Of a stretch of 64,000 bases of DNA, positions 1 to 56,524 are shown in pieces. A program made the translations under genes and the position numbers. The stretch comes from Armatimonadota bacterium (GTDB taxonomy: Bacteria; Armatimonadota; UBA5829; DSUL01): positions 139,814 through 203,813 of the forward strand of contig JBPOJE010000011.1 in assembly GCA_052033935.1 (NCBI GenBank), in the 5' to 3' direction. Position 1 is the first letter of the stretch; each line of letters begins with the position of its first letter. The notes beneath the pieces are model-generated. The model searched no databases, was not told the origin of the DNA, and saw nothing but the letters and a program-made list of their open reading frames with translations.

Positions 1-1923
1 CGCTCGCGCTGGCGCCGATCGCGTACTGGTACCCAGTGACGCCCGATTGAGGGTCGGTCGAAGACCAACTTGCGTGAAGCGATGTGGTGGACGCCTGATA
101 GCCGCCGTCGTCCACAACCACGGGGGTTGCGGGGGGCGATGTGTCCACCATGATACCGTCGCTCACGCCCACGCTGCTCCAAAGTCCCGCGTTGTTCAGG
201 CTCTTGACGTACACATAGTACGACTGCCCGTCCTTCAGTGAAAGTCCTGTCCGCGTGACCGAGCCGGCCGTGCCTGTCGAAGTCCAGCCGGCAAGATAGC
301 CGGACCCGGGGTCGGAGGCGCTTGTTCCGATCGCGTAGCGGTACTCCGCTATGCCGCTCTCGCCATCTGACGAGGAAAACGTCGCGTGAATCTGCGTTCT
401 GGACGTCTGCCAGGCGCCGTCATCAGTGACAGAAGGAGTGGTGGGCGGCGTGGTGTCTGTTGTGAATGTGCGCGTGGCCGGCGTCGGGTCCACGTTGCCC
501 GCCGCGTCACGCGCGCGCACGCTGAACGTGTGCTGTCCGGATGATAGGCCGGTGTAAAGCGCTGAAGTGGCCGAACCGTATGCTGACCATGCCCCACTGT
601 CGAGTTGGGTGGCGTAAAGCAGCGAGGATGTAGCCGTGACGTCGTCGGAACCCGTGAAAGTGAAGGTGACGGACGACGTGGACAGAAGCGAGCCATTGGC
701 GGGGCCGCTGGTTATCTGCGTGTCGGGCGGGACGGTCTCCGGTGGCAGAGGCACAAACTTGCAGATGCTGCCGCTGTTTGTATTCGCGACATAGACGGCG
801 CCATACTGGTCCACTGCGATGCCCTCGGGCCTGAAGAGCTGGCCCGGCCCCGTTCCGGCCCCGCCAAACTCGGTGACGTATGCACCGTTTGTGGTGAACT
901 TCTGCACGCGGCCGGAATAGCTCTCCACCGTATAGACATAGCCGCCTGAAAATGCCACTCCTTCAACATACGTGAACTGACCCGGGCCGGTGCCGGAGGT
1001 GCCCCAGTGCAGCACGTAGTCACCGTTGAGGTTCAGTTTCTGAACCCGGTAATTGCGGACGTCCGCCACGTAAATGTAGGAGCCGTCGCAGGCAAGGCCT
1101 GCCGGGTTCCTGTAGAGCCCACCCGTGCCGCCGTAGTCACCCCAGGTCGCGAGTGTGGTGCCCGAAGCATCGACCCTGACCAACCTGTGGTTGTGGTGAT
1201 CGCTAACAACGACGCCACCTGAAGGATGAGGCGCAACACCCCAGAAACCAAAATCAGTATCGTGGACCAGGGTCCAGTTGTACCACTGTGTTATGAGTGT
1301 GCCTTGTGCGGAGAACTTCTGGATCGCAAAATCGTCCGTCACATAGACGTAGCCGCTGGCGTCCACTGCCACGCCGTATGGATAAGCGAAGAAGCAACCA
1401 AGGTAGGTGTCCCAAGCAGCCAGGAATCGGCCGGTCCTGTCGAACTTCTGGACGCGCTGACCCTCCGGATCGGTCACAAACACGTTACCCGAGCGATCAA
1501 CGGCGACCGAAAGGGGCACAACCATCTCGCCGTTGACCAGGCTACCCCCGAGGCTGTTGGCGGCGTCCGAGGTCTTCCACGACCGCTCAAGGATGTAGCC
1601 GCCGTTGCTGTCTGCCGGCACGACTTCAATGTTGGCGGTTGCCGTCAGTCCGCTGTAGCGTGCTGTCACGGCCTGTGGAAACGCGCCGACCGTGGTTCCG
1701 GCTGTGAACAGCCCCGATTGAGTGACGGTGCCCGCGCCAGCGGTTGCGGACCACGTTGCCTGTCCAACGGATACGGTCTCACCATCGGCGTTCAGCCCGA
1801 AGAGAGTCAGCCGCATCTGAAGCCCGGCCTGGAGACGCACAATGTCGGGAGTGATGTAGAGCTTCGCTAGCGCGGCGCAGCATCTGCACGAACAGGCGAA
1901 CAACAGCCCCACCAGTGCAAGCA
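1..1923 (-). CDS. Secreted NHL-repeat beta-propeller protein with Ig/Fn3-like repeats (C-terminus runs off window edge)
   Basis: Uninterrupted minus-strand frame from the window start up to an ATG (revcomp of cat ~1921-1923; in-frame GTG alternatives up to ~1977). Hydrophobic N-terminus MLALVGLLFACS. Repeated NHL-like blades (YVTDxx..RVQKF, YVADVRNYRVQKL, YTVESYSGRVQKF). Downstream Ig/Fn3-like repeats contain a GWTSTGT motif that also occurs in the 27832-31404 protein. Absent from the ORF track only because it is edge-truncated. Confidence 0.75.
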
Positions 1924-1991
1924 TCAGCAAGACAGTCCTACGAGAATCCTCGCGTATCACAGCCAACTCCTCGGTCACGGTTCTACAGCCT

Positions 1992-2765
1992 CTAGTAGCC
2001 GCTGTGGCTATAGACCCTGGGGTCAACGTAGTCCGTGACGCCCGGATGGAATGCGGCCTTTGCCGTGTCGTAGTTGAAGTACATCGGAGCGCCAGTACGC
2101 CGCGAAGCTTGACCCGATTGCTCATCCGTCTTCGAGGGGTATGCCTTTGGTCCGTTGCGAACTATCAGACGCTGGACGTGGCCATCAAGGCAGACTGCGT
2201 TGATGAGCGACTGCTCCCTGATGCCTCTGGCGCCTCCATAGTGCCAGGCCGAATGCTCGTAGAACACAATCTGCTCTGAAGGACAGCAAAACTGGGTAGC
2301 GCTACGGACACCAAGGGTTCGCCACGCCTGGTCTATGGCAGCAACCCACCAGTACGAGAGGGTTGTTTGCAGCACATCCGAAGGACAGTAGACACGGCTC
2401 TCCCACAGGGAGATGTAAGGCAGCAGGATCTGCCCCCAGCTCACAGGTTTCGTCCCCGTGGGCGGCGCACCCGTGAAAGTCGCCGTAAGGAATTTCGTGA
2501 TCTCCTGCTCAGTTGGCGCACTCCCGGTGGCACACACCACGGAACTCGGCAACGTGTCGTTGTTGTCGTCCAAGTACATCATTAGTGCTTGTGCCACCCC
2601 TTTCAGGTTGTTAGCGCACGACGACTCTCGTGCCCTCTCTTGGGCGCGATTGAACACCGGGTAAAGATACGCGGTCTCGGCGGCCACAATGAGGAACAGG
2701 CTGACAGCCTGTGCAATTGTGACGACGCCCCACCACCTTCTCAATAGCAATGCAAGTCGTTTCAC
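1992..2765 (-). CDS. DUF1559 (H-X9-DG) prepilin-like N-terminal domain protein
   Basis: N-terminal hydrophobic helix followed by PVFNRAQERARESSCANNLKGVAQALMMYLDDNND, the DUF1559 signature. C-terminal HYGGARGIREQSLINAVCLDGHV (H-X9-DG). Likely GTG start ~2765 with GGAGG 8 nt upstream. The track ORF extends further, to 2888, via an alternative start. Confidence 0.7.
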   Translation of the reverse strand: MKRLALLLRRWWGVVTIAQAVSLFLIVAAETAYLYPVFNRAQERARESSCANNLKGVAQALMMYLDDNNDTLPSSVVCATGSAPTEQEITKFLTATFTGAPPTGTKPVSWGQILLPYISLWESRVYCPSDVLQTTLSYWWVAAIDQAWRTLGVRSATQFCCPSEQIVFYEHSAWHYGGARGIREQSLINAVCLDGHVQRLIVRNGPKAYPSKTDEQSGQASRRTGAPMYFNYDTAKAAFHPGVTDYVDPRVYSHSGY

Positions 2766-3007
2766 AACTGATGCCTCCCAAAGGTCCCGGTCAACGGTGC
2801 AGCGCGGGAACGGTGTCAAGTATAGCACCACCCGCCCGCTGGGACAATGGGCGTGCCAATGGCTGTCGGGCCAAAGTAGAAATGTCACATGCCGTCCAAT
2901 GTAAGAATGTCACATTCGTGAGTCTCTTGAGTCTGGCATCCAGTGGCCTTCCCCTGTTTTTGTGGACACGCAAGCACTCGGCTAGCTTCGACCTCCAAGC
3001 CGCCCGC

Positions 3008-3478
3008 CTACTCCACCCTCTGTATATCCGCCTGGCTGCGCGGCCAGATCACTGGCAGGTAGAGCGTCTCGTAGATCATCTCGCCCGTGTAGCCGCTCTC
3101 GGTCGCTGTAACCATGGCCTTGTACTGCGTCCCGTACGCTCCCCGGATGTCCGCCCCGGCGTCCCATACGATGTGCTTGCCCGTGCCCGGGGCCACGTTC
3201 TGCCCGACGTCGCCGGTGAGGGCAGTGGGGATGATGCTCCAGGTCGCGCCGCCGTCGCTGGAGATCTTGACTTCCACGAGAAGCCGGGCGGAATCCGGGT
3301 CGGTGAGGTTGTAGGTGATGTCCACGAGCCGGGACTGCCCCGGCCGCTGCGCCGCGGTGATGTTGGTGACGGCCGGCGCCACAGCGCCAGCCACAGAGGC
3401 GGTCACGAAAGCCAGAACGATGGATCCGGCCATCGTCAGTCTCGCGGACCGGCACGCTGTCGTGGTTGCGATTGACAC
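3008..3478 (-). CDS. Small secreted hypothetical protein
   Basis: ORF 3008-3571 on the minus strand. Clear signal peptide (RSARLTMAGSIVLAFVTASVAGAVAPAVT). Start is either GTG ~3478 (GGGAGGG 3 nt upstream) or ATG 3433. No recognisable family. Confidence 0.5.
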   Translation of the reverse strand: MSIATTTACRSARLTMAGSIVLAFVTASVAGAVAPAVTNITAAQRPGQSRLVDITYNLTDPDSARLLVEVKISSDGGATWSIIPTALTGDVGQNVAPGTGKHIVWDAGADIRGAYGTQYKAMVTATESGYTGEMIYETLYLPVIWPRSQADIQRVE

Positions 3479-3635
3479 GTTCCCTCCCGTATGCACAGAG
3501 CACGCGACGCGCATTGAACGCACGCCGTCATACTCCATACAACAACACTTCGGCCGCCCGGTCAAGGGCATATGGCGCGAGCCTCTGCATGCGGCTGGGG
3601 TTCTCGCGCCGCATCTCGCTCACCGCGCCGCTCGC

Positions 3636-4425
3636 CTACTCCACCACCACAACATCCCCCGCCGCCCTTGGCCTCAGCGCCCGCACGACCTTGCCGCCGA
3701 TCTTCTGGGCGGAGCTGAGGCCGTGCAGGGTCACGAAGCTGCCCTTCGTGGGCGGCGCGATGCTGTTGCCGGAGGCAAGGCCGTTCAGAAGCACCCGCAC
3801 GCCCGTGGCGCCTGCGAGTCCGCTGCCGTCCGAAAGCCCGCTCCCGTCATCCAGATAGAAGAACTGTCCCCCGCCGTCAACGAAGCTGACTCTTCCCCAC
3901 GCCTGCACCAGAAGCCCGACGTTGTTCAGGCCGAAGGCTCCGTTGATGCCGGGGGTTTCTCCCGCGGGCCCGCCGCCGAGCACCTTCCCGGCCATCTTCC
4001 ACGCCACGGGCAGCGGCTGGGCGCTGAAGCGCCGGGTCAGCTTCTGCAGCCGGATGTAGCGCTCTCCCTGGCTGCTGGTCAGAAGCGTCCCCTGCACGTC
4101 CACCCAGTCGCCCTTGCTTGCCGACGCGCTCGGGAGGTAGGTGCGGTCCACGCGGATGCCGGCAAGCGCGCTGCCATCCTCGACATACAACGCTGTGCTG
4201 AAGTCCTCCGTGCCGCACGAACTCCGGATTGAGCGGCCCCGCGGACATCTGCCAGTTGTCGGACGCCGCCAGCGGCCCCGTCAGGCCGCCGAGGACATCC
4301 TCGACCACGAAGTTGTCGCTTGCGCGAAAGCCGCTGCCTGAGTTGATCTCGGCTGCAGCCGGACAGAATCCCGCAACCGCCAGGATCAGCACAGCGACTC
4401 CGGCTATCATTGACCTGTTTCTCAT
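3636..4425 (-). CDS. Secreted protein: signal peptide plus the conserved C-terminal two-part module (apparent +1/-1 frameshift near 4190)
   Basis: The N-terminal part reads in the frame of ORF 3877-4596 (MRNRSMIAGVAVLILAVAGFCPAAAE..., ATG 4425, AAGGAGG RBS 4 nt upstream). The C-terminal part reads in the frame of ORF 3636-4190 (YVEDGSALAGIRV...GLNNVGLLVQAWGRVSF...FYLDDGSGLSDGSG...VVVVE). The second frame has a stop ~4281 and no signal peptide, so the two halves only make one protein across a frameshift between ~4190 and ~4280. The C-terminal ~190 aa are homologous to the C-termini of the 27832-31404 and 39003-40466 proteins and to an internal segment of 42728-45730. Confidence 0.6.
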
Positions 4426-4598
4426 GTTTCCTCCTTCGTTTCTGCCAGCCTCGCAGAAGCGCCTGCGGACTGAACTCGATATGGCTGCCGCGCCGCCCCG
4501 CGCGTTTCCCGGCTTCGGGAATTCGGGCTGGTGGTTATCGTTACCATGGTGCTCGTTGTCATTCCCGAAGCATAGAGAAACTCTTGATATTCCCATGC

Positions 4599-5411
4599 TT
4601 AGGTCTTAATGATGTAGTTCACAACCAGGAAAGGCGGGTTACTGGTGCCGGTATAGCCAACAACAGGGGAGTAATGACTGAAGCTACCACCAATCTCATT
4701 GCTGGCCCCGACGGCGACATATGTCGGATCCCCAAACCCTGCGCCCGTGTTGGGATCCATGGCGCCAACCACCACCAGGCCGATCGTCTTCGGACGGCCA
4801 TTGCAGGTACCAATCACAGCGCGCAAATCGCCGCCTTCTGCGCCGTAGCCCTTGTGGCTATGGTTGATGGCTCCGCCTGCTTCACCAAGGGTGGAAGCAG
4901 TGCCCGACACCGACTTTCCTATGGGAAACCGCTGCCGCAGATCTGGGAGCGCGAAGGTGTCTTGAGAAGCGCCGGCACCATACTTGGTCCCAATGACACT
5001 AAACAGAGCAGCATAGGCTGTCCGTGAAACGTCGGTTCCATCACAGAGCAGCCAGCCGTCCGGCGCGGCATCTCCAGCGTAGGCCATTATGGAACCAGGT
5101 GGGCTGAGGGCCTGGGCAAGCTCGGGGGGCAACGACGACGCGACAGTCGCGCTCGCCGCCTTCTCCGCTACCATCGCGTACGGCACGCTGCCGAGGAGCA
5201 CGTGAAACGCGCTGCCCTTCACCTGAAGCGCATCGTATGTCTCCGTCCAGATGGCCGTTCCGCCCGTCGGAACCTCGTAGATGCTGAACGCGATCTTGTA
5301 CGCCCCGTCCGGCACGGCTGCGCCGCTCCCTTGTCCTGGTAGTTGATGAGCGGCGGGACGGCGTCCGCAAGCACAGGCATAGCGCCGGCAAGGGGTGCAC
5401 GTCTTGATCAT
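4599..5411 (-). CDS. Phage tail collar domain protein (MdpB-like)
   Basis: C-terminal region GWLLCDGTDVSRTAYAALFSVIGTKYGAGASQDTFALPDLRQRFPIG...NPPFLVVNYIIKT matches the phage tail collar domain family. N-terminal AVPDGAYKIAFSIYEVPTGGTAIWTETYDALQVKGSAFHVLLG is typical of these proteins. ATG at 5411 (MIKT...); the track ORF extends to 5888 through an unconvincing Pro/Arg-rich leader. Confidence 0.8.
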   Translation of the reverse strand: MIKTCTPCRRYACACGRRPAAHQLPGQGSGAAVPDGAYKIAFSIYEVPTGGTAIWTETYDALQVKGSAFHVLLGSVPYAMVAEKAASATVASSLPPELAQALSPPGSIMAYAGDAAPDGWLLCDGTDVSRTAYAALFSVIGTKYGAGASQDTFALPDLRQRFPIGKSVSGTASTLGEAGGAINHSHKGYGAEGGDLRAVIGTCNGRPKTIGLVVVGAMDPNTGAGFGDPTYVAVGASNEIGGSFSHYSPVVGYTGTSNPPFLVVNYIIKT

Positions 5412-5492
5412 GGCGAACGGTTGTACGGCATGATTTCTGGCAGTGTTTGTTGAAGTTTCCTTTTGGCGATAGCCGAAGGGAGATTCAACAGG

Positions 5493-6012
5493 ATGTGCGA
5501 CAGCCGGAAGCGGCAGATCGAGGAGTTGACCGCGGAGAAGGCGGACCACCCGGTGGTGTGCGTGAGCTGGGACGACGCGCAAGCCTACTGCGAGTGGGCG
5601 GGGCTTCGCCTTCCAACGGAGCTGGAATGGGAGAAAGGGGCGCGGGGCGTGGACGGGCGTGAGTATCCCTGGGGCGGCGACTGGGAGGACGGCCGCCGGT
5701 GCCGTTGGAGCGGGAACAAGGGGAATGAGGAGACCTGCGGAGTTTGGGGCTACCCTGAGGGGTGCAGCCCATGGGGCCTGTACCAGATGAGCGGGAACGT
5801 GCGGGAGTGGTGCGCGGACTTGTGGGAGGAAGGCGCGTATGAACGTTACAAGCGGGGCGACCTGTCGGCGCCAGCGAGTGGCAGCCATCGGGTGTTGCGT
5901 GGTGTTGCGTGGTGGCTCGTGGGACCGCGTCTTCAGCTTCCACTTTCGATGCGCCTACCGGGGCTACGGCGGCAGCTACTACGACGGGTTTCGTTGCGCC
6001 AGGACTCTGTAA
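5493..6012 (+). pseudogene. FGE-sulfatase (SUMF1/EgtB-type) domain remnant: N-terminally truncated and frameshifted by a 10-bp tandem duplication
   Basis: [44 protein letters not shown]...GNVREWCAD is the C-terminal half of an FGE-sulfatase domain. A stop lies upstream at ~5451, so the N-terminal half is missing. At 5891-5910 the 10-mer ggtgttgcgt is perfectly duplicated in tandem. Removing one copy restores ...[37 protein letters not shown] (stop ~6010), the canonical FGE C-terminus. Confidence 0.7.
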
Positions 6013-6047
6013 CGGCTTGCGGCTTTACGGCTTTACCCCTTACAACT

Positions 6048-6070
6048 CCCCTCTCCTGGCAGGAGAGGGG
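6048..6070 (+). terminator. GC-rich perfect hairpin downstream of the FGE remnant
   Basis: cccctctcct-ggc-aggagagggg palindrome. No U-tract, so a factor-independent terminator role is uncertain. Confidence 0.3.
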
Positions 6071-6135
6071 GCGACCGGGACCGTCAGATTCCGATCTGCG
6101 CCGAGTCTCACGGGCAACACCGGTTTCTCCTCCGG

Positions 6136-7703
6136 TCACCCAACCTGGAGCCGGGCAACAACCCGCGCGGGATATTGAAGATCAGTTGCCCGCAGTTCAA
6201 CCACATGCCAGGGACGAGAGCCAGTGCGAAGCCTCTCGCGGATGAACAGATCACGACGCAGATTGCTACCGGCATGGAAGCTGGCGCCGTCCACGTACAC
6301 CGCGACACGCCGGCCCGGTATTGCGAAGTCGGCCACGCTGATCGGCAGCCCCGCATCATCTGGCGCCACAGGCACCTGCTTCTCGACCTTGATGCCCTGC
6401 TGCTCGAACAGCCTGAGGAACTTCAACTCCAGCGGCGACCCGACTCCCGCAGCGTAGGCTTCGAGCCAAGGGCGCGGATCGTGCACATCTCCGGTCTCGC
6501 GCGGCCCGGGTTCGGGAGCGGTCTCTGCCAGCGACTCCAGTTCGCCAGTCGTACCAGGCCAGCGAAGGTATTCGTGGTACCGCTCGATTTCAGACAGCGA
6601 TAGCAGGCGGTCTCGCAATCGGGATGCGCCAGGTGCTCCAGCGCCTGCCGCGCAACCAGGTGCAGCGACTGTGCCACCCGGTGCAGGTAACCGCTTCCGC
6701 CAACGCTCGGATCTATGAACGCCAGTGATGCCACGCGGAACTGCCCCCCGCCCCCAGCGGTCATCATCCATGCTCCCTCAAACAGGAAGTCAATGTCGCT
6801 GTCACTCAGAACGAACTGGCGCACAATGCCAAGCCTGAGGGCGTAACCTAGCGAATGCCCCCAGGTCTGCAGTGCGCCGTGGTCAATCTCCGACGGCACG
6901 CAGGCCAGCAGGCGCAGAATCTCGGCTTCGCGTGCGGCTATGAGCGCGATCGGCTGTGGTGACTGCCCCCGGTTGGCGCAGGCGCCATCGTGCCCGAACG
7001 GATCCCGATCCTCGCCGATCCGGCGGGCATTCCGGCGCCGACCTCCATCCGTCGCATTGCCCGCCGCAGACAGTGTCCGCCAGCAGGATGTACAGATGAA
7101 GAAGCCCCGCACAGTGTTGTGCAACACAGGCGGCGCTTCCGGCCCTTCCGGGGTTGTTGGCGGAGGACCTTCATTCACCCAATGCACGTTCTCACGGACG
7201 GACAACCGCAGAGCCCACCCGGGCGGAGTCGTCCATCTTGCGGACACTTCGCCGTTCCACTGCGGGTGCACGGTAACCCAGCTTCGGGCCGCAAACCGTT
7301 CCTCTTCGTCAATAACCGGGCTTTCGTTTCGTGTGGCCACAAACCCGCCGTATTCCATACCCGGGAAGCAGTCGCCCGGCTCATCCGCGCCACACCGGGG
7401 ACACCGTGGCTCCGTAGCTGCGTACCGCAGATCGCACTGCGAACAGATTCGGTAGCGCCAGCTTGGTTCGCCTGAACGTGGATTCCAGGGAGACGACGAA
7501 TCCACGCCGGCAACCTTCCAGCGACGGGTGCGGGCATACACGGCAGCGTCCGGCTGGAACTGGCTGATGCCGTGCGTTTTCCTGCCTCGCGCCGCATTGG
7601 CGGAAAGCCCAGGGGCGGTTCGCCATTCCCCGCCGATCTGTAAAGGTCCCAGAGGTCGCGCGAATGAGGGACACACGTCCCCGGACAGCAACTGGCAGAA
7701 CAT
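6136..7703 (-). CDS. DUF1998 (Zn-ribbon, MrfA/DrmB-like) domain protein fused to a C-terminal DUF559 (Vsr-like endonuclease) domain, with an apparent frameshift near 6585
   Basis: ORF 6423-7739 carries CxxC...CxxC ([10 protein letters not shown]...RCPRCG), [23 protein letters not shown] and CETACYRCL, which are DUF1998 hallmarks. The overlapping ORF 6136-6771, in another frame, continues ...[14 protein letters not shown]... into [83 protein letters not shown], a DUF559 motif pattern. The two frames overlap at 6585-6620, so a single protein requires a 1-nt indel there. Start ATG 7703 is tentative. Confidence 0.55.
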
Positions 7704-7865
7704 CTGCCAGTCGATCGCCGATCTCCGGCGACAATGCACTCACCTTGTAATCGGCAGATACAATGGATTAACCTTGTTGCGCGCGGGGGCCTGCTGACCG
7801 GCCTCGCGGCGCGAAGCCTGCTCCAGTAGCGCCGGGGCGCCCGGCATAACCCAAGGAGACCGACA

Positions 7866-9116
7866 ATGCGACTGATTGAATGCATGCTGATACTTGTGCT
7901 GGCGATATGCGGCACGGCGGGAGCCGCCGCCAACAAGGCCTACCCCACCGCGCTGAATGTGATGGATTTCGGCGCGAAGGGGGACGGCAAGACCGACGAC
8001 ACCGCCGCCATTCAGAAAGCGATTGACGCCGCGAGCGCCGTGGGAGGAACGCAAGTGACCCTGCCGCGCGGAAACTTCCTGATCAAAGGGCATCTGGAAG
8101 TAAAGGATCATGTCGTCCTGAAGGGCGTGTTCGAGGCGCCGACAGCGCGCACGCAGATGCTGGGGACGACGCTGCTGGCCGTGGACAGCAAGGGCGGCCT
8201 GGAAGGCGAGCCGTTCATCACCCTGCACGCGAATGGCACGCTGAAAGGACTCACCGTCTTCTACCCGGAGCAGTCCGCCGAGAAGCCCAAGCCCTATCCC
8301 TGGACCATTCGCGGCACCGGCGACAACTGCTCGGTGCTGGACGTGCTGCTGGTGAACCCGTGGGCGGGCGTGGACTTCGGCACCTTTCCCGCCGGGCGGC
8401 ATCTCATCCGGGGCCTCTACGCGCAACCGCTGCACATCGGAGTGTTCGTGGACAAGTGCTTCGACGTCGGGCGCATCGAGGACGTGCATCTGTGGCCGTT
8501 CTGGGACTCCTCGGACGCGATGCAGGCATACCTGAAAGCGAACGCGACGGCGTTTATCATCGGCCGCACCGACTGGGAGTACATGAACAACTGCTTCTGC
8601 ATCTGGTACAAAGTCGGCTTCCACTTCAAAGCATTCGCGGATGGCCCGGGCAACGCGGTTCTGACGCAGTGCGGATCGGACATCGGCCCGACGGCGGTGC
8701 TGGTGGAGGCGGTGCAGGGACACGCGGGGGTGTCGTTCTCGAACGGGCAGTTTATGGCGGGAATCGAGGTGAAGCCATCGAACAGCGGCCCGGTCAAGTT
8801 CACGGGCTGCGGGTTCTGGGGCGTGGAGGGCGTGACCGGACCGCACGCCGTGCTCGAGGGATCGGGGCAGCACAGCTTCAGTAACTGCCACTTCACCGGA
8901 TGGGACCAGAAAGGCTCCGGCGTGCCCTGCATCCGCGCCACTAACGGCGGGCTGAGCCTGCAGGGATGCGACTTCATGGACGAGGGGAAGTCTCAGATCG
9001 AGCTGGGCAAGGACGTGAAGGCGGCGATGATTGTTGGCAACCGGCTGCGCGGCGGCGAAAAGATCAAGAACAGCTCGGCGGGCGACGTACAGATGGGGTT
9101 GAACGCGAAGCAGTAG
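7866..9116 (+). CDS. Secreted pectate-lyase-superfamily (right-handed beta-helix) glycoside hydrolase
   Basis: Signal peptide MRLIECMLILVLAICGTAGAAA. NVMDFGAKGDGKTDDTAAIQKAIDAA is the Pectate_lyase_3 / GH28-GH55-like N-terminal signature. AAGGAG RBS 7 nt upstream of ATG 7866. Confidence 0.85.
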   Translation: MRLIECMLILVLAICGTAGAAANKAYPTALNVMDFGAKGDGKTDDTAAIQKAIDAASAVGGTQVTLPRGNFLIKGHLEVKDHVVLKGVFEAPTARTQMLGTTLLAVDSKGGLEGEPFITLHANGTLKGLTVFYPEQSAEKPKPYPWTIRGTGDNCSVLDVLLVNPWAGVDFGTFPAGRHLIRGLYAQPLHIGVFVDKCFDVGRIEDVHLWPFWDSSDAMQAYLKANATAFIIGRTDWEYMNNCFCIWYKVGFHFKAFADGPGNAVLTQCGSDIGPTAVLVEAVQGHAGVSFSNGQFMAGIEVKPSNSGPVKFTGCGFWGVEGVTGPHAVLEGSGQHSFSNCHFTGWDQKGSGVPCIRATNGGLSLQGCDFMDEGKSQIELGKDVKAAMIVGNRLRGGEKIKNSSAGDVQMGLNAKQ

Positions 9117-14433: not shown

Positions 14434-14800
14434 AGCACCCATGTCTGTACAGGTCTGAAGCTCTGGCATTAGAGACCTGGAAGTTTTCCTGCGCGGTCCC
14501 AGAGAACCTTGGGAGTATATCCGCGCGCCCGCCGTACAGTCAAATTCTGTTACCGGAGCGCTCGCATTCCGCGGCGGCAGGAGGGCGGATGAGCCGCGCC
14601 GAACATCTCATCCGACGGGCCACAAGAAAGATGAGAGGCAGGATCTCAGAAACTATGAAACACGATGTGAAACCCGGGAACGCCGGGAAGGCGGCCCGTA
14701 CTCTGGCCGGGTGCCTGGGTCTTGGCGCCATCGGCACGCTGATTCTGATGATCCGGGAGTGGCGGTCAGGGCGCTGACTGCCGCGCGGAGACTTCAAGCT

Positions 14801-27831: not shown

Positions 27832-30800
27832 ATGAGAGCGCACAGATCCACGCAGGAGTCCGCACTTGTGACACTCGCCTTTGCTATTCTGAGCCTTGTT
27901 GCGGGATCGCAGCCGGTGATGGCAGCCGCCCCCCCGCCACCGCTGTACGCCGCCGATGACGCATACGTGATGGAGCAGGACACGTCCCTAGTCGTCACGC
28001 AGACCTACCCGACGTACCTGGCAATCGGAAACAGCCTCACCCACAACAGCCCCGGATCGTGGAACAACAACACACCACCGGGCTGGGGCATGAACGCCTC
28101 GGCCGAGGATAAGGACTTTGTGGCGTTGATCACATCGTTCCTGCGCGGCAGAAACAGCCAAAGCGCGGCGCAGGTGTACGACAACGGCACGGCCCGCCAG
28201 CCATTCGGCAGCGTAGCCGCCGCCCTCAGCATTATCGCAACCTACAAGGCCTATCACGCCGATGTGATCACGGTTCAATTGGGCGAGAACGACAGGTATA
28301 TGCCGCTGGATGAGTTTCGCGACAAGTACGCCGATCTGCTCGATGCTCTCCTCGACAACACCCCACGCCCGAAGATCCTCTGCTTCGGAATCTGGAACTC
28401 CAGTTCGCTCTACCGTCCCTGCCTTCCAGGCGTGCCCCTGACGCAATGCGACCACGAAACGGAACTGGACGCCATAATCAGCAGTCTTTGCGCCGAGAGG
28501 AAGCTCATCTTCCGGTCTGTAAAGTATGTGGCCATGGACCCGGCCAACCACAATCCGGGCGGAGGCGCATACAACTGGCACCCGAACGACTCTGGCATGG
28601 AGGCGTACGCCGCCCTTTTCGCAACGGCTTACGAGTCGCTTTCACCACCACTTCTGATGGCTAACGACACCTTCCCCGCCGGTGCAGTGGTGCATGCGGA
28701 GATGGTCACGGAGCCCGCACACGGCACGCTGTCCCTGGGGGCTGACGGATCTTTCGTTTATACGCCCGACGAGCACTTCGCGGGCGTGGACTCGTTTATG
28801 TATCTGGTAGTGGGTAAGACCGAAGCCTCGCCGGCGGCGACAGTGACCATCGAGGTACGCCAGAGGAATCACTCCCCGGAGGGCGTGGCCGACGTCTACC
28901 TGGCCGAGGACGACGGCAGCCTCAGCGTGCCTGCGCCAGGCGTCCTGACGAACGACACGGATTACGACAACGACCCGTTGACAGCGCAAATCTGGGTGCA
29001 GCCAAAGTACGGACAGGTGACCCTCAACCCGGACGGGTCGTTCACATACACTCCCGGGCCATCCTTCAAAGGCTCCGATGAGTTCGCCTATCGCCCGTAC
29101 GATGGCTTACGGAAAGGTGCTGTCACCGCCGTCTCGATCGGGACCCGGGCGCTCGGTGAGCCCGAAGCAATATGCCGGGACTCGGACACCATCGTACTGA
29201 AATGGAGGAAGCCCGCCGATCCGGCATTTCAGGCAGTCAGCATTCAGCGCGCCGAAGGGAACGGCCTGTTCGTCCAAGTGGGCCGGACTTCTGCAGAAGA
29301 GTTCGTGGACAGCGGGCTCACCGAAGACCGCGTATATCACTACTGCCTGACTGTCGAGAGTCCTCATCCAGTGAGACAGACCCTCCTCACCGCTCAGACT
29401 TTCAGGAAGATCCCCGACAAACGACGGGGCGCTATCGGCCCGGACGGTGGCACAATCTGGTGCGCGGGCGCGAGCGACAGCAACATTCTTTATCACTCCG
29501 ATGACGCCGGGGAGACATTCACCGCCGTGAAGGACTTCGGCGCACTGGCGGGCGGACCGGTGACCGCGATCTTTGTTGATCCGTTCGGGTCGGTCTATGT
29601 CAGTGCATCCGACGCCGCGGCGATGGGTGACGGAAAGGTGTACCGCTCAACGGACAACGGCGCGACGTGGGAGACGTGCAAGACCCCCACGGGAGACGAC
29701 CTTGTGCTGATGGACGGCCTGCGCGCTCCCGCAAGCGCGAGCACCTGGTTTCATTCGAATGGTTTCGACTGCGGCCTGGACATGCTCGGGCAGCCGATGT
29801 GGATGCTGGGGGTGTTCAAGCACGACAATGGGCCGAACAACGCCTATCTGTACCGTTCGAGCGACGGGATCACTTTTGAGGAAGACAGCCAGCTTGCGGA
29901 CACGTACCCGCTGCTGCGGCACATCCACTCAGTGGCGTACGATCCGTACAGCGAGCGATGGTATGTCGCCTACGGAGACTCCCCACGCCAGTTCAGCGTG
30001 AGCGAAGACGGTATGAGCTTCACGCCCCTTCCGCCGGAGGCACGCGGCGCGTCTTCGGTGGCGGCCTTCACGCCGGAAGCCATTCTCATGTCGGGTGAGG
30101 CATATTTCAACAACGGAGTCTGGCGCAGCACGGACGGCGGCCTTACGGCCGTGAAGACCCCCATGCCAGCGCACTCGGATCTGCTCTGCTACGGTCTCAA
30201 GAGCTTCCCGGACGGCGAGGTGTGGCTGGCGAGCTTCCGCGATACGTTCCCGCAGCCGGACGAAGCATCCTGCATGTGGGTTTCGAGCGATCACGGGGCG
30301 ACGTGGCGCAGAATCGCCCAGGAGTCCACCGACACCGCCAACCTGTCCGATCCCGATTTTTATACCATCGCCAGCACGGCCAGCAGCGCGCTTGCCGGAG
30401 ACTATGTTTTCGTGGACTGCTGGCAGTCGAGGTACATCGCGCGCTTCCGGCGTCTGTCCGGCATTGGCGCGGCCTCACCCCCGTCCATCACGAGCATAGA
30501 CGCATCCGGCAGCTTTGTGACCGTGCCACACACGCTTCAGGCAACGTGGATGGCCGAGCAAGGGACGGCGCCGATTGCCGAGTTTGAATACGCGGTGGGG
30601 ATGCAGCCCGAGGATCCGAGCACGAACTATGTCGTGGGCTGGACATCCACGGGAACCACAGCCGGCGCCATTGTTCCGGGCCTCAGCCTGGAAGCGGGCC
30701 GGCAGTATTACTTCTATGTGCGGGCGCGGGACAGCCGCGGTCTCACCTGCCTGCCGGTGGCAAGCGCCGCGGTTGACGTTCCGGCGGACGTGGAGCGCAT

Positions 30801-31404
30801 AGGGGAGCTGTGGGACCTGGCGAATGGAGTGCTGATCCGGTTGCGGGACAAGGTTGTGACGTGTACTGTTCCAGGCGGGTTCTGGGTGGAGGAGGACGAC
30901 CGGGCTGCTGCCCTGCGTGTGATCTCGCCGGTCGAGGCGGCGCCGGGCGACCGGGTCACCTTCACCGGCGCTCTGGAGGCATCGCAGGACTCCCGCCAGT
31001 TCGCCACATCCGGGGCGGTTGTCACCTGTTCAGGGGCACCCATCCCCGCCCCGCTTTCCACGCCGGGGGCCGCGCTGCTCTTCCAACCCGCAAACAGCCT
31101 GACACCCGGAGTGAAAGATGGTGGCTCGACGTACGGCGTGGGGCTGCTCGTGAGATGCTGGGGCTTCGTGAGGTCGTCCGGGCTTTCGGACAGTGTGGGG
31201 CCCTACTTCCACCTGGACGACGGCAGCGGACTGGATGAGGGGAGCGGCATCGCCGGCGTTCGGGTCCGCATCGCAGGCGAGTGGCCGGCAGTGGGCACGA
31301 TGGTTTCGGCAACGGGGGTGGCGGCCATGGAGAGTGTCGCGGGCTGCCTGGTTCCGGTTCTTATCACCCGTTCCGCCGAAGATGTGCGGCTGCTGATCGA
31401 ATGA
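27832..31404 (+). CDS. Large secreted multidomain protein: SGNH/GDSL hydrolase, cadherin-like repeats, Fn3, BNR/sialidase-like propeller, and the conserved C-terminal module
   Basis: Signal peptide MRAHRSTQESALVTLAFAILSLVAG. GDSL-like block VITVQLGENDRYMPLDEF. Cadherin-like VYTPDEHFAGVDSFMY and GSFTYTPGPSFKGSDEF. BNR motifs SDDAGETF, STDNGATW, SSDHGATW. GWTSTGT repeat. C-terminus GLLVRCWGFV...FHLDDGSGLDEGSG...RLLIE is shared with three other proteins. Confidence 0.85.
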   Translation: MRAHRSTQESALVTLAFAILSLVAGSQPVMAAAPPPPLYAADDAYVMEQDTSLVVTQTYPTYLAIGNSLTHNSPGSWNNNTPPGWGMNASAEDKDFVALITSFLRGRNSQSAAQVYDNGTARQPFGSVAAALSIIATYKAYHADVITVQLGENDRYMPLDEFRDKYADLLDALLDNTPRPKILCFGIWNSSSLYRPCLPGVPLTQCDHETELDAIISSLCAERKLIFRSVKYVAMDPANHNPGGGAYNWHPNDSGMEAYAALFATAYESLSPPLLMANDTFPAGAVVHAEMVTEPAHGTLSLGADGSFVYTPDEHFAGVDSFMYLVVGKTEASPAATVTIEVRQRNHSPEGVADVYLAEDDGSLSVPAPGVLTNDTDYDNDPLTAQIWVQPKYGQVTLNPDGSFTYTPGPSFKGSDEFAYRPYDGLRKGAVTAVSIGTRALGEPEAICRDSDTIVLKWRKPADPAFQAVSIQRAEGNGLFVQVGRTSAEEFVDSGLTEDRVYHYCLTVESPHPVRQTLLTAQTFRKIPDKRRGAIGPDGGTIWCAGASDSNILYHSDDAGETFTAVKDFGALAGGPVTAIFVDPFGSVYVSASDAAAMGDGKVYRSTDNGATWETCKTPTGDDLVLMDGLRAPASASTWFHSNGFDCGLDMLGQPMWMLGVFKHDNGPNNAYLYRSSDGITFEEDSQLADTYPLLRHIHSVAYDPYSERWYVAYGDSPRQFSVSEDGMSFTPLPPEARGASSVAAFTPEAILMSGEAYFNNGVWRSTDGGLTAVKTPMPAHSDLLCYGLKSFPDGEVWLASFRDTFPQPDEASCMWVSSDHGATWRRIAQESTDTANLSDPDFYTIASTASSALAGDYVFVDCWQSRYIARFRRLSGIGAASPPSITSIDASGSFVTVPHTLQATWMAEQGTAPIAEFEYAVGMQPEDPSTNYVVGWTSTGTTAGAIVPGLSLEAGRQYYFYVRARDSRGLTCLPVASAAVDVPADVERIGELWDLANGVLIRLRDKVVTCTVPGGFWVEEDDRAAALRVISPVEAAPGDRVTFTGALEASQDSRQFATSGAVVTCSGAPIPAPLSTPGAALLFQPANSLTPGVKDGGSTYGVGLLVRCWGFVRSSGLSDSVGPYFHLDDGSGLDEGSGIAGVRVRIAGEWPAVGTMVSATGVAAMESVAGCLVPVLITRSAEDVRLLIE

Positions 31405-35793: not shown

Positions 35794-36609
35794 TTAACGC
35801 CTGGCTTCAGACGCGAAGACGTGGGGAACCGACTTTCCCTTTTCCAGCCCGAACGCCCACTTCAGGCCGCCAAGGATGTGCTGCTGGAACTCCTTGCTCT
35901 CCCAGACTTCGTCGCGATGGCCAAGAGCCGTGTAGAACACCTTCCCCTTGCCGTAGTCCTTGCACCAGGCGAGCAGGTAGTCTCCCGGCTGACCGGCCTC
36001 AGGGTGCCCGTCGTCCGGATGCCTGTCCAGCGAGAGCAGCACATGCACCTTCGAGCGTTCGTTCTCTTTGTGCTCGTAGATCTCGTCGTACACCCTGTAC
36101 GGGGTCTTGAGATGCTTCGTGGCGGGGTGCGAGGGATCGTCAACAATCGCGGCGACCTCGCACTGTTGTCCGTGCGTCTTGAACTGGCCCCCGATCATTT
36201 CGATGTAGCTCTTGTCGCCGCGGTTCTGTTCGGGGTGATAAGTGTCCGTCGCGGCATGCACACCCAGGAATGCATGCCCGGACTTGATCCAGTAGAGGAA
36301 CGAGTACAGGTTCGGGATGCCCAGGTTTCCAGTGGTGTTCGCGAAGAAGACGCCGTCGTAGCTCCGCAGCCCGGAGAGCGTCATCATCTTCTTGACGTCG
36401 TCCTTCGTGCGGCAGAAATCCACCGTGAAGAAGCCGCTATCGTCCGCAAGCTGCTGCAGCACCTTTTCAGAAGCCGGAATGACGCTGTGGTAGAACCCGG
36501 CGGTGTAGGTGACGACAAGAAGCCGTTTCTTGTCCCCGTCCCTGGCCCAGGCCGCCGTCGCGGAAACGAGAAGAGTGATCCCAACGAGAAGAGCAAGAAT
36601 CCGATGCAT
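35794..36609 (-). CDS. ThuA-like (trehalose utilisation) family protein
   Basis: Signal peptide MHRILALLVGITLLVSATAAWA. ThuA-like core (LLVVTYTAGFYHSVIP...HRDEVWES). Confidence 0.8.
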   Translation of the reverse strand: MHRILALLVGITLLVSATAAWARDGDKKRLLVVTYTAGFYHSVIPASEKVLQQLADDSGFFTVDFCRTKDDVKKMMTLSGLRSYDGVFFANTTGNLGIPNLYSFLYWIKSGHAFLGVHAATDTYHPEQNRGDKSYIEMIGGQFKTHGQQCEVAAIVDDPSHPATKHLKTPYRVYDEIYEHKENERSKVHVLLSLDRHPDDGHPEAGQPGDYLLAWCKDYGKGKVFYTALGHRDEVWESKEFQQHILGGLKWAFGLEKGKSVPHVFASEARR

Positions 36610-36725
36610 GTAACAGGTCCCTCGAATCGAAAAGTGCGCCGCAAGAGATTCGGCGCACGCCCCCATCCTCCGCAGATAATCATATCCTGCCTGCGCCGAA
36701 AATCGCAAAAGGACGCCCGGCGCCG

Positions 36726-39002: not shown

Positions 39003-40466
39003 GTGAAGCAGAAAATGACGCGAGTATTGCTGCTCGCTATGGTTGCGCTAATTTGCGCGGTCGGGGCTCACGCCATGGACTGGTGGGCTTCGGAAGTGAT
39101 AGGCTCAAGCCGCCTCGGCAATAGCCCCTATGACGATCCGACGGCTACTCTCGGCAAGCCCACGGTCTGGATGAACAACTCCGGTGCTCCCGGCGATCCG
39201 GATCCCTGCGCGGTATCGATGGTCATCCCGGCTTGGAACGTAGGCTGGCCGAGTGGCGAAAAGCTGATTACCACCATTATGGCTAGGACATCCACACTTC
39301 CCGCTGGCTATGTCACGGTCAAGTACACTACCAGAATCTATGATGACCCTAGTAACTGGTACGGCAAGGACTTTATCGTATTCGGCAACAGCTTCTTTGC
39401 AGCGGCTGGGCATTACGTGTATTCGGACTCGAATATGGAGGATGTTGTTATAGACTCCATTGATGGCGGAGGCGGGTGGTGGGAACCGATGCCGGTCAGT
39501 GTCAGCCAGGACAACATTACCTGGTATTCCTACACCAATGGACCCTATGCCGATGACTACGCCCCTACACAAGCCCTCGCCTGGGACTGGGTTGAAAACC
39601 ACTGGCTTAAGAACAGTGCGGGTGTTGACGTGGAACTTGATTTCACACGGCCGGTGACCCCGGGATACGGCAAAGCTAGCTTCAACGGGAAGACTGCGGC
39701 GGCAGGCATTGATATGTACGGCGGATCTGGCGGCGGGACTGCCTTTGATCTTGCCGAGTTACCCCTTCCCATAGATCCAGTTACGGGCCGCAAGTGGATC
39801 CAGTACATCAGGATCGATGGCGCGATGGGTGAGGTCGATGCTTTCGCCCGAGTGAGCCACCAGATTGATGAGATGTCCATCGGCGCCGTGAAGAAGCTGC
39901 CGGACGGGACTAGGGTGGTTCTCAAGGAATCTGTTGTGTCGGCTGCCACCTACGAGGTCGGGAGGTATTGTTATGTCGAGCACCCGGACAGGTCGGGCGG
40001 CATCAGGGTCATTGGTCGGGTTCTTGACCGCGATAAACACTACATTATCTACGGCGACATGGACACCATGGGAGATGAGCGTGTGATCCTCGCCACGGCA
40101 ATTACAGCCATTGAGGATAACACAGATCCGGTTGAGCCGGTTGGCATGCCAAACAGAAACATCTACGGCCACGGCCTGAACACGGCTGGACTTCTTGTGC
40201 AGACTTGGGGAAGGGCGCTCTCTGTTGACCAGGCTGACAAGTCTTTTGTGATTGACGATGGCTCCGGCAAGCCGATCAGGTGCATCGCCCCCAGAAGTAC
40301 AGAGGCAGCCGAGCCGAACAACGGCGTGGCGGTTCATCCGGATTTCAGTCCGCCAGCACAGGGCCATTTTGTAAGAATTACGGGCATCAGCTCGCTTGAG
40401 CGCAATGCTGAGGATGAGGTGGTGCCCGTGATCAGACTTAGGGACATCTCAAGCGTTGTCGAATAG
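39003..40466 (+). CDS. Secreted hypothetical protein ending in the conserved C-terminal module
   Basis: AGGAGA 6 nt upstream of GTG 39003 (ATG alternative at 39015). Signal peptide MTRVLLLAMVALICAVGAHA. C-terminus CYVEHPDRSGGIRV...GLNTAGLLVQTWGRA...FVIDDGSG...ISSVVE. Confidence 0.8.
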   Translation: MKQKMTRVLLLAMVALICAVGAHAMDWWASEVIGSSRLGNSPYDDPTATLGKPTVWMNNSGAPGDPDPCAVSMVIPAWNVGWPSGEKLITTIMARTSTLPAGYVTVKYTTRIYDDPSNWYGKDFIVFGNSFFAAAGHYVYSDSNMEDVVIDSIDGGGGWWEPMPVSVSQDNITWYSYTNGPYADDYAPTQALAWDWVENHWLKNSAGVDVELDFTRPVTPGYGKASFNGKTAAAGIDMYGGSGGGTAFDLAELPLPIDPVTGRKWIQYIRIDGAMGEVDAFARVSHQIDEMSIGAVKKLPDGTRVVLKESVVSAATYEVGRYCYVEHPDRSGGIRVIGRVLDRDKHYIIYGDMDTMGDERVILATAITAIEDNTDPVEPVGMPNRNIYGHGLNTAGLLVQTWGRALSVDQADKSFVIDDGSGKPIRCIAPRSTEAAEPNNGVAVHPDFSPPAQGHFVRITGISSLERNAEDEVVPVIRLRDISSVVE

Positions 40467-42520: not shown

Positions 42521-42727
42521 TGCCGGAGGTGTTCGGCGCGGCGGACGGGGTTCCCTGCGCGGTGCATTGGTCATGGCGCGATAGGAAAGGCGGCCGCGCC
42601 CACGAGCGTTGGCTACAGGAATCGGCTATAGTAGTGGTCAGGCGCAGGCTGGGCCATCCGGACCTTGCTGAGGCACAGACCGGATTGGGACAGCCCGCAG
42701 GTCGTTGGCGTGATCGGGAGGTCAACT

Positions 42728-45700
42728 ATGCGCGTCCGGTCTTACTTTGTCGCTGCTCTTCCGCTCTTCCTGTTCGCTGGTGCACGCGTCGGCGTCGCTG
42801 CGCCCATCGCGACCGCGACCGACGTCTCCGCGGCGCTGGCTGCGCCGGACGGGGCCGCTGTGTCACTGCAGACGGTCCTCGTGGATAAGGCCGCACGCGG
42901 ATACATCGTCGTCAGGGCACCGTGGTCGGCAGACGAGCGCGTGGTGGTGGTCGCGGCCGTCAACGTGAAGCGGTGGCAGCCCGTGGCTGTGAAGGGCACC
43001 CTCACCACCCTCGTCAATGGCATCAGGGCTGTCCGGGCGGACGAGGTCTTGGTCTACACCGACGCAGAGGGAGCGCCCGTCATTTGTCCGATTCCTCCAC
43101 CCATGACCAAAGGCGCCATTGCCGCATCCTTTTCTACTGCAGCGGCAGCCATCAAGCTTGATGAGCTCGCGATGCTCGCGGAGGATGAGACGCCGCCAGT
43201 GCCCGACCCCACACCGCCGGCTGTGGAACCCCAGTATATCGTTGGCACCATCAGTGAAGCTCTCGCGCTTGGTGAGGGCAGTACGGTCAGGGTCAACGGC
43301 AAGCCCATAGCGTCAACAGGCGACGACCCGACGTACGGCGCTTACTTCGTCGCTGGCGAAGACGGCAGTTCTGACACTCTCAAAACCTTCAGCTCCGCTG
43401 CAGCCTCGGCCGAAATGCGAGCCGCGGGCCTTACCGGAACCATAGCGATTCAACCGGGAGTCGGTAAAGTCCTCAGTACGGACAGCGGCCCTGGCAACCC
43501 GCCAGAGGGCTTCCACGGCCTTGCGGAACTGGCTGTAGCCGTAGATGTGTTCGGAGCAAAGACGAAACCGGACGACATGGAGGTGCAACTGCTCGGAAAG
43601 GTGGTGAGCCGTGCCTTCCCGAGCGAGGACGTGTTCTACATCCAGGAGCCAGACCGCGCATGCGGCATCAAGGTGGTCGATGCCATCAATGCAGCCTCAG
43701 TTGCCCCGGGCGATCTGGTCAGTGTCACGGGCTTCATATCAACGAACGCGTCAGGCGAGCGTTACATCGAGGCGTCGACCACAGAAATCACCGGCTCGAT
43801 AGAGCCACCGGTCCCCACAGCGATGATCAACCGCACTCTTGGAGGCGGCGATTTCCACTATAACGCCACCACCGGGGCCGGGCAGAAAGGCATCTCTGGA
43901 GTCGCCTACGGGCTGAACAATGTCGGCCTGCTCGTCCGCACGACCGGCAAGGTGACAGCCATCGGGAGTGATTACTTCTACGTTGACGATGGGAGTAACC
44001 TCAGCGACGGGGCGGGCCACACCGGCGTCCGTGTGGCCAACGTTCCTGCAACCACAGTGTCGGTGGGCGATTACGTTGGCATCGTCGGCATATCTGGTTT
44101 GGAGGGTACCAACCTCGCCTGCCGCCGCGTGCTCCGACCCGCAGACACGGCAGATGTTGAGACCCTCGATCCGCTCGCTCCGGCGAACCTCACCGCCAGT
44201 GCGGGCAACACCAGCGCGAGTCTGGTCTGGGACGCGGCGCCGGTGAGTTCGTATGCAGTTTTCCGGGGGGCCAGCCAGAGTGGCTCATTCACGCGAATCG
44301 CCACCGCAACGACTACTGCTTACGTAGATTCAGGCTTGACGAACGGCACAACCTATTGGTACAAGGTGGCGAGTATCAGCCTCGGCGAAGGTACGCCGAC
44401 GGCCGCTGTATCGGCAACGCCGACGGGGGCGGCGCCAATGGCAACAATGAGCAACTTAGCCGTAAATGACGGCACGCTTTCAGTGGATTACACCGCCACC
44501 GCAGGCTCTAGCGGCGACGAGCCGTCCATGGTTGCCTTTGGGTTGGATGGAGCACTAATATGGGCGGACACACCAGGCTTGCACAGCCACTTTGTGCTCG
44601 ACACGACGCAGTTCGCTAACGGCCCGCATCGGCTCTCTATAACCGCCATTTCGGCGTCCGCAGCCGGTGTGCTCACCTCAACCACGGCCGTGCAGGACGT
44701 CGCTTTCGACAACTTCGCATCGTCGTTTACCATACCGGAGGTAGCCTACGAGACAGCGGCTATTTCAACCGTTTTCGCAGCCCCAACGAGTTGGACCTTG
44801 CGTTTCCTGTCCGGTTCGCAGGAACTTGCGAGCACATCCGGCACGGGCACAGTTGTTTGCTACACTTGGGACAGCTCGCAGGCGTACGGAAACGTGACGG
44901 TCGAGTTGAGCTACGATGAGCCGGGTCCACTTGCTGCCCAGAAAGTGCGGAATGGCAGGACGTACGTCACCCACGGGGTGTACCCGCCAACCCCGCTTGC
45001 CTGGGCAGCTTATTATCCCGCGGATGCTGTCTCGGGGCAGGAGCTTTGGTACCGGCAGGATTACAACGCGGCCGCATCGAGTCTTCTGGATCATTTTGGC
45101 GTGCCGCCAGGCAATGAATGGCGCGGCCGCATTGCCGGCTGCGGCGGTTGGGATACAGTGATCGACCCGGTGCTCGTTGAGCCGGATTTCTGGCCGGGGA
45201 TACTGTTCTTCTCCGGACATGGGGAGTACGTCGACCGGGATAAGTCCATGCTCTACCAAGGGGCCGTTGCCGGCAGCTTCACTGGGGGGCGGACCTGCGG
45301 GCTCACAGCCTTGACGCCGTTCGGCACTCCGAGCGGCCCCATTTATATGCAGGCGGCTGGGCCAGCCCTCGGCAACGGAGGCATCTTCGACCCGCTTACC
45401 GGGCGCGTGGCGATGACGATGGTACACAAGCGGCTTGAGTTCGTCTTTTTCAATACGTGCTTCTCAGGCGGGCGTTCAAGCAGTAGCCGTCTTCCCCTCC
45501 TTCCGTTGGCTTTCGGCCTGCCGCGGCAGCGAGTAAGCGGCCTGGGCGCGGCCTACCTGGGCATTGTGGACACGGCGGAAAACGACGACGCGACCCTGTT
45601 CAACCAGACGTTTTGGAACTACCTCGAGCAGGGCTACACCATTGCCAGGGCCGCGTTCCATGCATCCCTGGCAACAGGAAAAAGGGTGAAGTATCGCATA

Positions 45701-46275: not shown

Positions 46276-46310
46276 TCATGGGCTGTGGCTGACAAGCTGT
46301 TACCATCCAC

Positions 46311-46452: not shown

Positions 46453-46516
46453 GGGGCTTGGGCAAACCTGGTGTGCTGCCTTGGCGTTGCTGTCCTGGTG
46501 CGGAGCTGTTTGCGTG

Positions 46517-56439: not shown

Positions 56440-56524
56440 TGGTTTCCCGCTGTGGTTTTCGAATTAGACCCCGCGCGGCCCCGATTTGTTATAATACGCG
56501 ACGAGGCACCCGAAGGAGGCTGAC

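Follow-up and report, generated by a model that had tools for sequence, protein, structure and literature searches.

The window analysed here, the whole of a 64,000-nucleotide stretch of DNA from an Armatimonadota bacterium (assembly GCA_052033935.1, contig JBPOJE010000011.1), carries four genes, in the following denoted A to D, which share a module of about 200 amino acids that is composed of two parts. The module had been pointed out in a first-pass annotation made from the DNA sequence alone, and its presence in all four open reading frames (ORFs) is upheld by a whole-length MAFFT alignment and by BLASTP comparisons between the copies, whose E-values lay between 6e-9 (B against C) and 2e-27 (A against D), with identities of 27–39%. 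In addition, the six-frame translation of the window was scanned with a hidden Markov model (HMM) made from the four copies, and exactly these four were recovered as full copies. The sequence motifs that had been quoted for the two parts are present, but only approximately.

Three of the proteins had been described as ending in a hydrophobic run plus a conserved glutamate. The endings VVVVE, RLLIE and SSVVE are indeed found at these three C-termini, and the same final residue occurs in the family members P0151, P0162 (a close homologue of C) and P0002. It is not a conserved feature of the family, however: among 118 members in which the module ends no more than 15 residues from the C-terminus, the last residue was P in 28 cases, R in 19, Q in 15, Y in 11 and E in 9. 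The hydrophobic run does not form a separate tail either: in the structure model it is a short beta-strand with which the module ends (residues 213–215 of the D module), predicted with a high local distance difference test (pLDDT) score.

The AlphaFold2 (AF2) model of the D module reached a pLDDT of 93 and a predicted template modelling score of 0.89, and the resulting fold was found again in a model of the full protein C (pLDDT 90.6). It had been considered before that the module could be a lectin-like beta-sandwich pair, but the predicted structure is neither this nor a new fold: both lobes are barrels of the oligonucleotide/oligosaccharide-binding (OB) fold. Structure comparison identified five-stranded closed beta-barrels with OB topology, and the Foldseek matches that extend across both lobes were to proteins with two OB folds, namely Deinococcus SSB (E 1.5e-4) and HIN-200. 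The module as modelled is thus two OB barrels in tandem, OB1 and OB2, with a conserved linker between them (Table 1). A beta-hairpin within this linker is variable and is missing from protein C and from P0014.

Table 1. Genes A to D and the parts of their modules in the window (OB1 and OB2, predicted first and second OB barrel; aa, amino acids)
Feature	Position	Strand	Content	Basis
Gene A remnant, module frame	3636..4220	-	OB1 without its first strand, linker, OB2, VVVVE and stop codon; module itself 3639-4220	
Gene A remnant, signal peptide and 44-aa N-terminal segment	4216..4425	-	frame differs from that of the module; junction at about 4216-4220	
Gene B, 1190 aa	27832..31404	+	signal peptide, GDSL lipase, cadherin-like/Big_9, BNR/sortilin-like propeller, fn3, module last	Pfam, NCBIfam
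B module	30787..31401	+	extreme C-terminus, ends RLLIE	alignment, HMM scan, BLASTP against A, C and D (E 6e-9 to 2e-20)
Gene C, 487 aa	39003..40466	+	signal peptide, unnamed passenger domain of about 260 aa (39075-39866), module	
C module	39867..40463	+	extreme C-terminus, without hairpin insert, ends SSVVE	
Gene D, 1000 aa	42728..45730	+	signal peptide, weak OB1-like single domains, internal module, fn3 (Pfam), C-terminal region of about 436 aa	
D module	43520..44167	+	internal	
D module, OB1 barrel	43520..43804	+	module residues 1-95, strands 21-33, 38-42, 49-53, 65-75 and 81-93	
D module, inter-barrel linker	43805..43930	+	conserved P..M.NR.LGGG, variable beta-hairpin insert, GLNN	AF2 secondary structure, family conservation map
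D module, OB2 barrel	43931..44167	+	module residues 138-216, including the terminal strand D-V-E-T-L	

The two barrels also resemble each other in sequence. When half profiles built from 183 family modules were compared with hhalign, OB1 and OB2 matched with a probability of 91.8% and an E-value of 7.4e-7 over 57 columns, and both contain the pattern G..V.L.G.VT ... FY.E/DD ... G.RV ... G..V.V.G. Because the two profiles match each other, the two parts are copies of one ancestral OB unit, and the module goes back to an internal and ancient duplication of this unit.

A conservation map of the family revealed a set of strongly conserved polar residues (Y40, R46, E80, R81, N133, N134, D157 and S159 in the numbering of the D module), a pattern which suggests either a specific interaction or a site that binds a metal or lies between the domains. 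Their conservation across very different proteins speaks against a module that needs no external ligand and has a structural or oligomerising role, e.g. as a stalk or a self-association domain by which large secreted proteins are stabilised or multimerised. The replacement of the module by anchoring tails on homologous passengers, which is described below, likewise suggests a common external partner and not a passive spacer, and we therefore consider a purely structural role to be improbable.

Scans of the four window proteins, 19 module sequences and 59 full-length members of the family with Pfam-A and NCBIfam gave no model that covers the module at threshold, and the earlier statement that it does not correspond to a described domain therefore holds. 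In particular, none of the T9SS/Por sorting-domain models (T9SS, type IX secretion system) matched the module in the window proteins or the 59 members, and neither Dockerin (PF00404) nor the described carbohydrate-binding module (CBM) families did so. The source names of all family members are 'hypothetical protein'. Literature searches returned nothing relevant that describes a tandem-OB module, and no experimental data for any member of the family.

The weak matches that were obtained were all to OB families, including BOF, RMI2, Rep_fac-A_3, DUF5689, the anticodon-binding region of lysyl-tRNA synthetase and the NCBIfam model stress_OB_fold (23.7 against a cutoff of 35). Of these, the BOF family (PF04076; YgiW, YdeI and SipA), whose members are periplasmic, comprises the nearest relatives that are detectable by sequence. 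BOF scored 27.4 bits with full-length D (gathering score 25.8) and 16.1 bits with the D module alone, it gave no Pfam match in A, B or C, and just 3 of the 59 members matched it at E<1e-3. A profile of 19 family members matched YgiW from E. coli (1nnx) with an E-value of 0.001 over the first half of the module. There are however clear differences: the BOF family, which is found mainly in Proteobacteria, is made up of stress proteins of about 110–130 amino acids with a single OB that stands alone, whereas the module consists of two fused OBs with a conserved linker and is carried by secreted proteins of 290 to more than 2,500 amino acids.

Tandem OBs are also found in nucleic-acid binders such as Deinococcus/Thermus SSB, HIN-200 and RPA32/RPA14. 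These proteins are cytoplasmic or nuclear, basic and DNA-binding, whereas the module is secreted and acidic; in addition, the orientation of the barrels differs (TM-score 0.25–0.4 over both lobes) and the identity is 8–23%. With the 19-member profile, the second half of the module gave an insignificant match to RPA14 (E about 1.6). The profile also matched, again without significance (E 0.19), the N-terminal region of 9sf8, a protein with an endonuclease/exonuclease/phosphatase domain, and one family member matched DUF5689 (PF18942; E 1.3e-4). Both DUF5689 and this region of 9sf8 resemble OB1 in pattern (strand, FY.Q/E, acidic turn, GI.V, GD.V.V.G). Neither has a counterpart of OB2 or of the conserved linker, however, and for the family taken as a whole the matches do not reach significance.

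These similarities raise the question whether the module targets a substrate, i.e. whether it brings an enzyme or adhesin to an extracellular polymer (DNA/RNA or polysaccharide), in the manner of a CBM or as the OB of a secreted nuclease may do. Both barrels fall into the nucleic-acid-binding structural class of OB folds, many passengers are beta-helix or NosD-like, and a flexible position and tandem copies, both of which are seen here, are typical of binding modules. DUF5689 proteins have been implicated in the handling of exogenous DNA, both for DdbD (bioRxiv 10.1101/2025.03.18.642099) and in the natural transformation of Riemerella (PMC8459023). As these weakly similar proteins are implicated in DNA uptake or utilisation, extracellular DNA is retained as a possible ligand. 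The modules are acidic, however, with a median pI of 5.0, a median net charge of -6 and 84% of them below pI 7, which does not favour non-specific binding of nucleic acids. Moreover, the passengers (lipase, propellers, RHS repeats, adhesin repeats) are too varied for a single substrate, the alternative tails found on the passenger of protein C are anchors or docking modules rather than substrate binders, and the similarities to 9sf8 and DUF5689 do not reach significance. Taken together, we regard substrate targeting as rather unlikely.

The module belongs to a very large unnamed domain family that is found mainly in Armatimonadota. When 1.84 billion cluster representatives (clusters at 50% identity) were searched exhaustively with a profile, 5,758 proteins were found at E<=1e-3; of these, 4,557 reached E<=1e-10 and 2,274 reached E<=1e-30. 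One genome per GTDB species was also scanned with a single seed pattern, [AG]xGLNNVGLL, which yielded 78 loci. The proposal that the module is specific to this lineage is supported as far as enrichment is concerned, with 49 of these loci labelled Armatimonadota or Armatimonadetes; another 27 are labelled 'bacterium' alone, and the last two are assigned to a Nitrospira bin and to a Coriobacteriia bin, possibly through errors in binning. Similarly, five of the six named source organisms among the family members are Armatimonadota. Several copies per genome are common: two or three module genes lie within 12 kb of each other at 21 of 74 loci, and at least 13 modules were found by one search pattern alone in the Armatimonadota metagenome-assembled genome AnMBR.bin211.

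The module had been proposed to be C-terminal, and this applies to most but not all copies. When genomic copies with true stop codons were considered, 73 of 97 ended no more than five residues from the stop, and 16 of 97 had more than 30 residues after the module. Among the 157 best cluster representatives, 105 ended within five residues of the C-terminus, 38 were followed by more than 30 residues, and 22 carried two or three modules; altogether 16–24% of the copies are placed internally or N-terminally, or stand in tandem. By a rough heuristic, about 73% of the full-length members have an N-terminal hydrophobic, signal-like region. The 59 full-length members contain 108 Pfam families before or around the module, none of which covers it, and these passengers include beta-helix, NosD and PMP repeats, several propellers, RHS, fn3 and CarboxypepD_reg.

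One indication of a function comes from the passenger domain of protein C, for which 296 homologues were found. In the best 120 of these 296, the tail was a tandem OB in 15 cases, PEP-CTERM-like in 30 and a dockerin-like calcium loop in 63, with the remaining 12 being other or truncated; the median lengths were 445 amino acids with the tandem-OB tail, 289 with the PEP-CTERM-like tail and 326 with the dockerin-like tail. Several of the PEP-CTERM-like proteins match PF07589 and bear the NCBI name "PEP-CTERM sorting domain-containing protein", and many of the dockerin-like ones match PF00404. One and the same passenger is thus found with alternative C-terminal tails, tandem-OB, PEP-CTERM-like or dockerin-like, and the module therefore fills the slot of an anchoring or docking tail. 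In addition, NCBIfam choice-of-anchor models matched 12 of the 59 members, Q in 10 cases and B in 2, and the name "choice-of-anchor" is used for passenger domains that are seen with differing C-terminal anchors. The weak matches of single members to M36 peptidase models, given below, point in the same direction.

The architectural role of the module is therefore like that of PEP-CTERM, type I dockerin, the T9SS C-terminal domain and SLH, all of which are usually terminal, are attached to many unrelated secreted passengers and occur as many paralogues per genome. There is no kinship in sequence or fold: PEP-CTERM consists of a short motif with a transmembrane helix behind it, dockerin of a pair of helices that binds calcium, and the T9SS domain has the fold of an Ig-like sandwich. 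By regular expressions, a PEP-CTERM tail (PEP motif, hydrophobic helix and basic end) was absent from 161 module-bearing proteins (P0001–P0161), and no prepilin motif or lipobox-like motif was found in them by the same means. Unlike these tails, the module is not strictly terminal, and no exosortase, cohesin or translocon partner was identified for it. We conclude that the module represents a tandem family that is new among OB folds and has BOF as its nearest relative. It does not belong to the PEP-CTERM, dockerin or T9SS tails, but is probably used as other phyla use these.

A tail of this kind could in principle be a C-terminal secretion or sorting signal which is recognised by a lineage-specific outer-membrane translocon or a sortase-like enzyme and then removed or modified, in analogy to the T9SS. 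About 75% of the copies lie within five residues of the C-terminus, many paralogues per genome sit on diverse secreted cargo, PEP-CTERM-like tails are replaced by the module on homologous passengers, and there are weak single-member matches to M36 peptidase models named as T9SS-dependent (E 1.3e-6) or myxosortase-dependent (E 4e-6). However, a processed signal fits poorly with the copies that are not terminal, among them that of gene D, or with the 14% of proteins that have two or three copies. It also fits poorly with a module that is a pair of OB barrels of about 200 amino acids and no Ig-like sandwich, that has no conserved terminal residue or motif, that matches none of the sorting-domain models of NCBIfam or Pfam and that has no conserved gene for processing or a partner nearby in the 78 loci. 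We therefore hold a sorting signal to be of low probability, whereas the flexible position and the tandem copies suggest that a folded binding module is the better fit. Of the earlier idea of an anchoring or sorting domain, anchoring is thus supported by circumstantial evidence, namely the alternative tails and the choice-of-anchor matches, while an obligatory, processed sorting signal is argued against.

We favour the reading that the module is a non-covalent surface or matrix docking or anchoring domain, and give it a probability of roughly one half. That the module binds, what it binds and that this binding keeps the protein at the surface is what we infer from the observations above. Passenger and module would be exported together by the Sec pathway and then cross the outer membrane, after which the tandem OB, in its folded state, would attach without a covalent bond to some component of the extracellular matrix or cell envelope, so that the passenger is retained. 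The target may be a protein of the outer membrane, a glycan on the surface or a different surface polymer. The module would have no catalytic activity and would serve in localisation, with a function akin to that of dockerin, SLH or other anchor tails. It is found, in most cases as the final domain, on many otherwise unrelated secreted proteins such as enzymes, beta-helices, propellers and adhesin-like repeats. A precedent may be seen in the BOF proteins YgiW, YdeI and SipA, which physically bind the outer-membrane proteins OmpF, OmpD and OmpA (PMC6370654); by analogy, this points to a role in localisation.

Several points weigh against such a docking role. The analysis has identified no ligand or partner of the module. 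Nucleic acids are the usual ligands of OB folds in this structural class. The argument from alternative tails is indirect and was tested directly on one passenger family alone, that of protein C. A PEP-CTERM protein is encoded in the same window (40509-41162), so that the lineage has other anchoring routes, and the stand-alone module proteins P0151, P0003 and P0004 have no passenger to anchor. Finally, the neighbouring genes are not conserved: in an all-against-all BLASTP comparison of 469 flanking ORFs, the most widespread family was present at 5 of the 78 loci.

As a more specific and more tentative version of the docking hypothesis, the module might be the cargo tag of a surface-display system that is particular to Armatimonadota and has so far not been recognised, with a dedicated receptor, protein or glycan, in the envelope. 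If this were true, the receptor would display dozens of secreted enzymes and adhesins per cell and the system would be an OB-based counterpart of dockerin-cohesin or T9SS attachment. The Armatimonadota are a widespread phylum with few cultured members, and we know of no described account of protein surface display in them. Since neither Pfam nor NCBIfam has a model for the module, thousands of secreted proteins are annotated only as hypothetical. A named family would improve the annotation of the proteins that bear the module and would provide a simple marker for the surface and secreted proteome of Armatimonadota, and it would offer a candidate, concrete enough to be tested, for a new mechanism of anchoring or docking which employs a fold that is usually associated with the binding of nucleic acids. 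Should a partner be found, the pair of module and partner could be used as a tool for protein display.

Gene A had been taken for a protein that consists of nothing but a signal peptide and the module, but the gene is disrupted and its two parts lie in different frames. The stretch 3636-4425 measures 790 nucleotides, which is no multiple of three. The signal peptide (MRNRSMIAGVAVLILAVAGFCPAAAE) starts with an ATG at 4425 in the frame of ORF 3877..4596, whereas the module is read in the frame of ORF 3636..4190. An intact counterpart was found in the metagenomic protein P0151 (287 amino acids), to which gene A is 77% identical over residues 1–70 and 90% over residues 94–287. Compared with P0151, gene A is shorter by 74 nucleotides, corresponding to residues 71–93 (LPQIASMRLGGDYQLVTLYSKTV); in the D model, these residues align with strand 1 of OB1. 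This loss accounts for the frame shift at about 4216-4220. As encoded, gene A is thus, judging from its sequence, either a pseudogene or an assembly error. Even in the intact form P0151, a segment of about 45 amino acids separates the signal peptide from the module.

This short segment behind the signal peptide is also seen in the other stand-alone module proteins (4216-4350, minus strand, in gene A; P0151, P0003 and P0004), where it contains a motif that occurs twice. The motif reads SGFRASDNF...AASDNWQM in gene A and P0151, and GG..S..(Y)K/R... twice, followed by GFW.GE, in P0003 and P0004. Directly upstream of gene A, at 4599-5888 (minus strand), lies a gene for a protein of 429 amino acids with a phage tail collar domain (PF07484, E 4.5e-24).

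Protein C has no Pfam match. In protein D, extra weak matches to the OB1 half only were found in the N-terminal part (42728-43500, plus strand), at residues 60–149 (independent E 0.08) and 205–257 (not significant) as numbered on the stop-to-stop ORF; these may be single OB units that precede the tandem module. The C-terminal region of D (44420-45727, plus strand, about 436 amino acids) gave no Pfam and no PDB sequence match. It contains ...FFSGHGEY... and ...FFNTCFSGG..., two stretches that are reminiscent of the His/Cys dyad found in caspase-like peptidases (clan CD). A layout similar to that of D is seen in at least eight metagenomic proteins, in which the module lies at about residues 100–540 and is followed by a tail of about 380–410 amino acids (P0040, P0043, P0076, P0089, P0099, P0101, P0129 and P0153).

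The best locus of the genome scan, from the Armatimonadota bacterium AnMBR.bin211, holds the orthologue of gene D, with an identity of 94% for the protein and 97% for the DNA, so that the window stems from a close relative. A block of 3.9 kb that comprises gene D and the next ORF, 45613-46275 (window 42576-46510; positions 5057-8993 of locus L001), is 97% identical in DNA to contig JAXGLP010000002.1 of AnMBR.bin211, and the 5-kb flanks of the block gave no BLASTN match to the window on either side. A rearrangement, a recent transfer or recombination, or a chimeric assembly could account for this. In L001, a gene for a PEP-CTERM protein (248-1123, minus strand) adjoins a module-bearing gene (1297-4143).

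The PEP-CTERM protein of the window is encoded directly downstream of gene C (plus strand); it is a secreted protein of 217 amino acids with a PEP-CTERM tail (VPEPGSLAGLLGGLVSISGLVLRSRK) that scores 19 bits with PF07589 against a gathering score of 20.7, and from its presence it follows that the genome also uses anchoring of the exosortase type. Directly upstream of gene C, the product of 38126-38977 (plus strand) has a prepilin-type N-terminal methylation motif (GFTLIELLV...) and also a match to DUF1559 (SBP_bac_10); the same prepilin-type motif is found in the product of 56495-57301 (plus strand). Finally, four ORFs that lack the module match extracellular or carbohydrate-related families, namely 2-2161 (minus strand; NHL/SBBP propeller and Ig-like domains), 9201-13238 (minus strand; a large protein with a weak GH5/GH42-like match), 14459-16954 (plus strand; DUF6259) and 35794-36837 (minus strand; ThuA).

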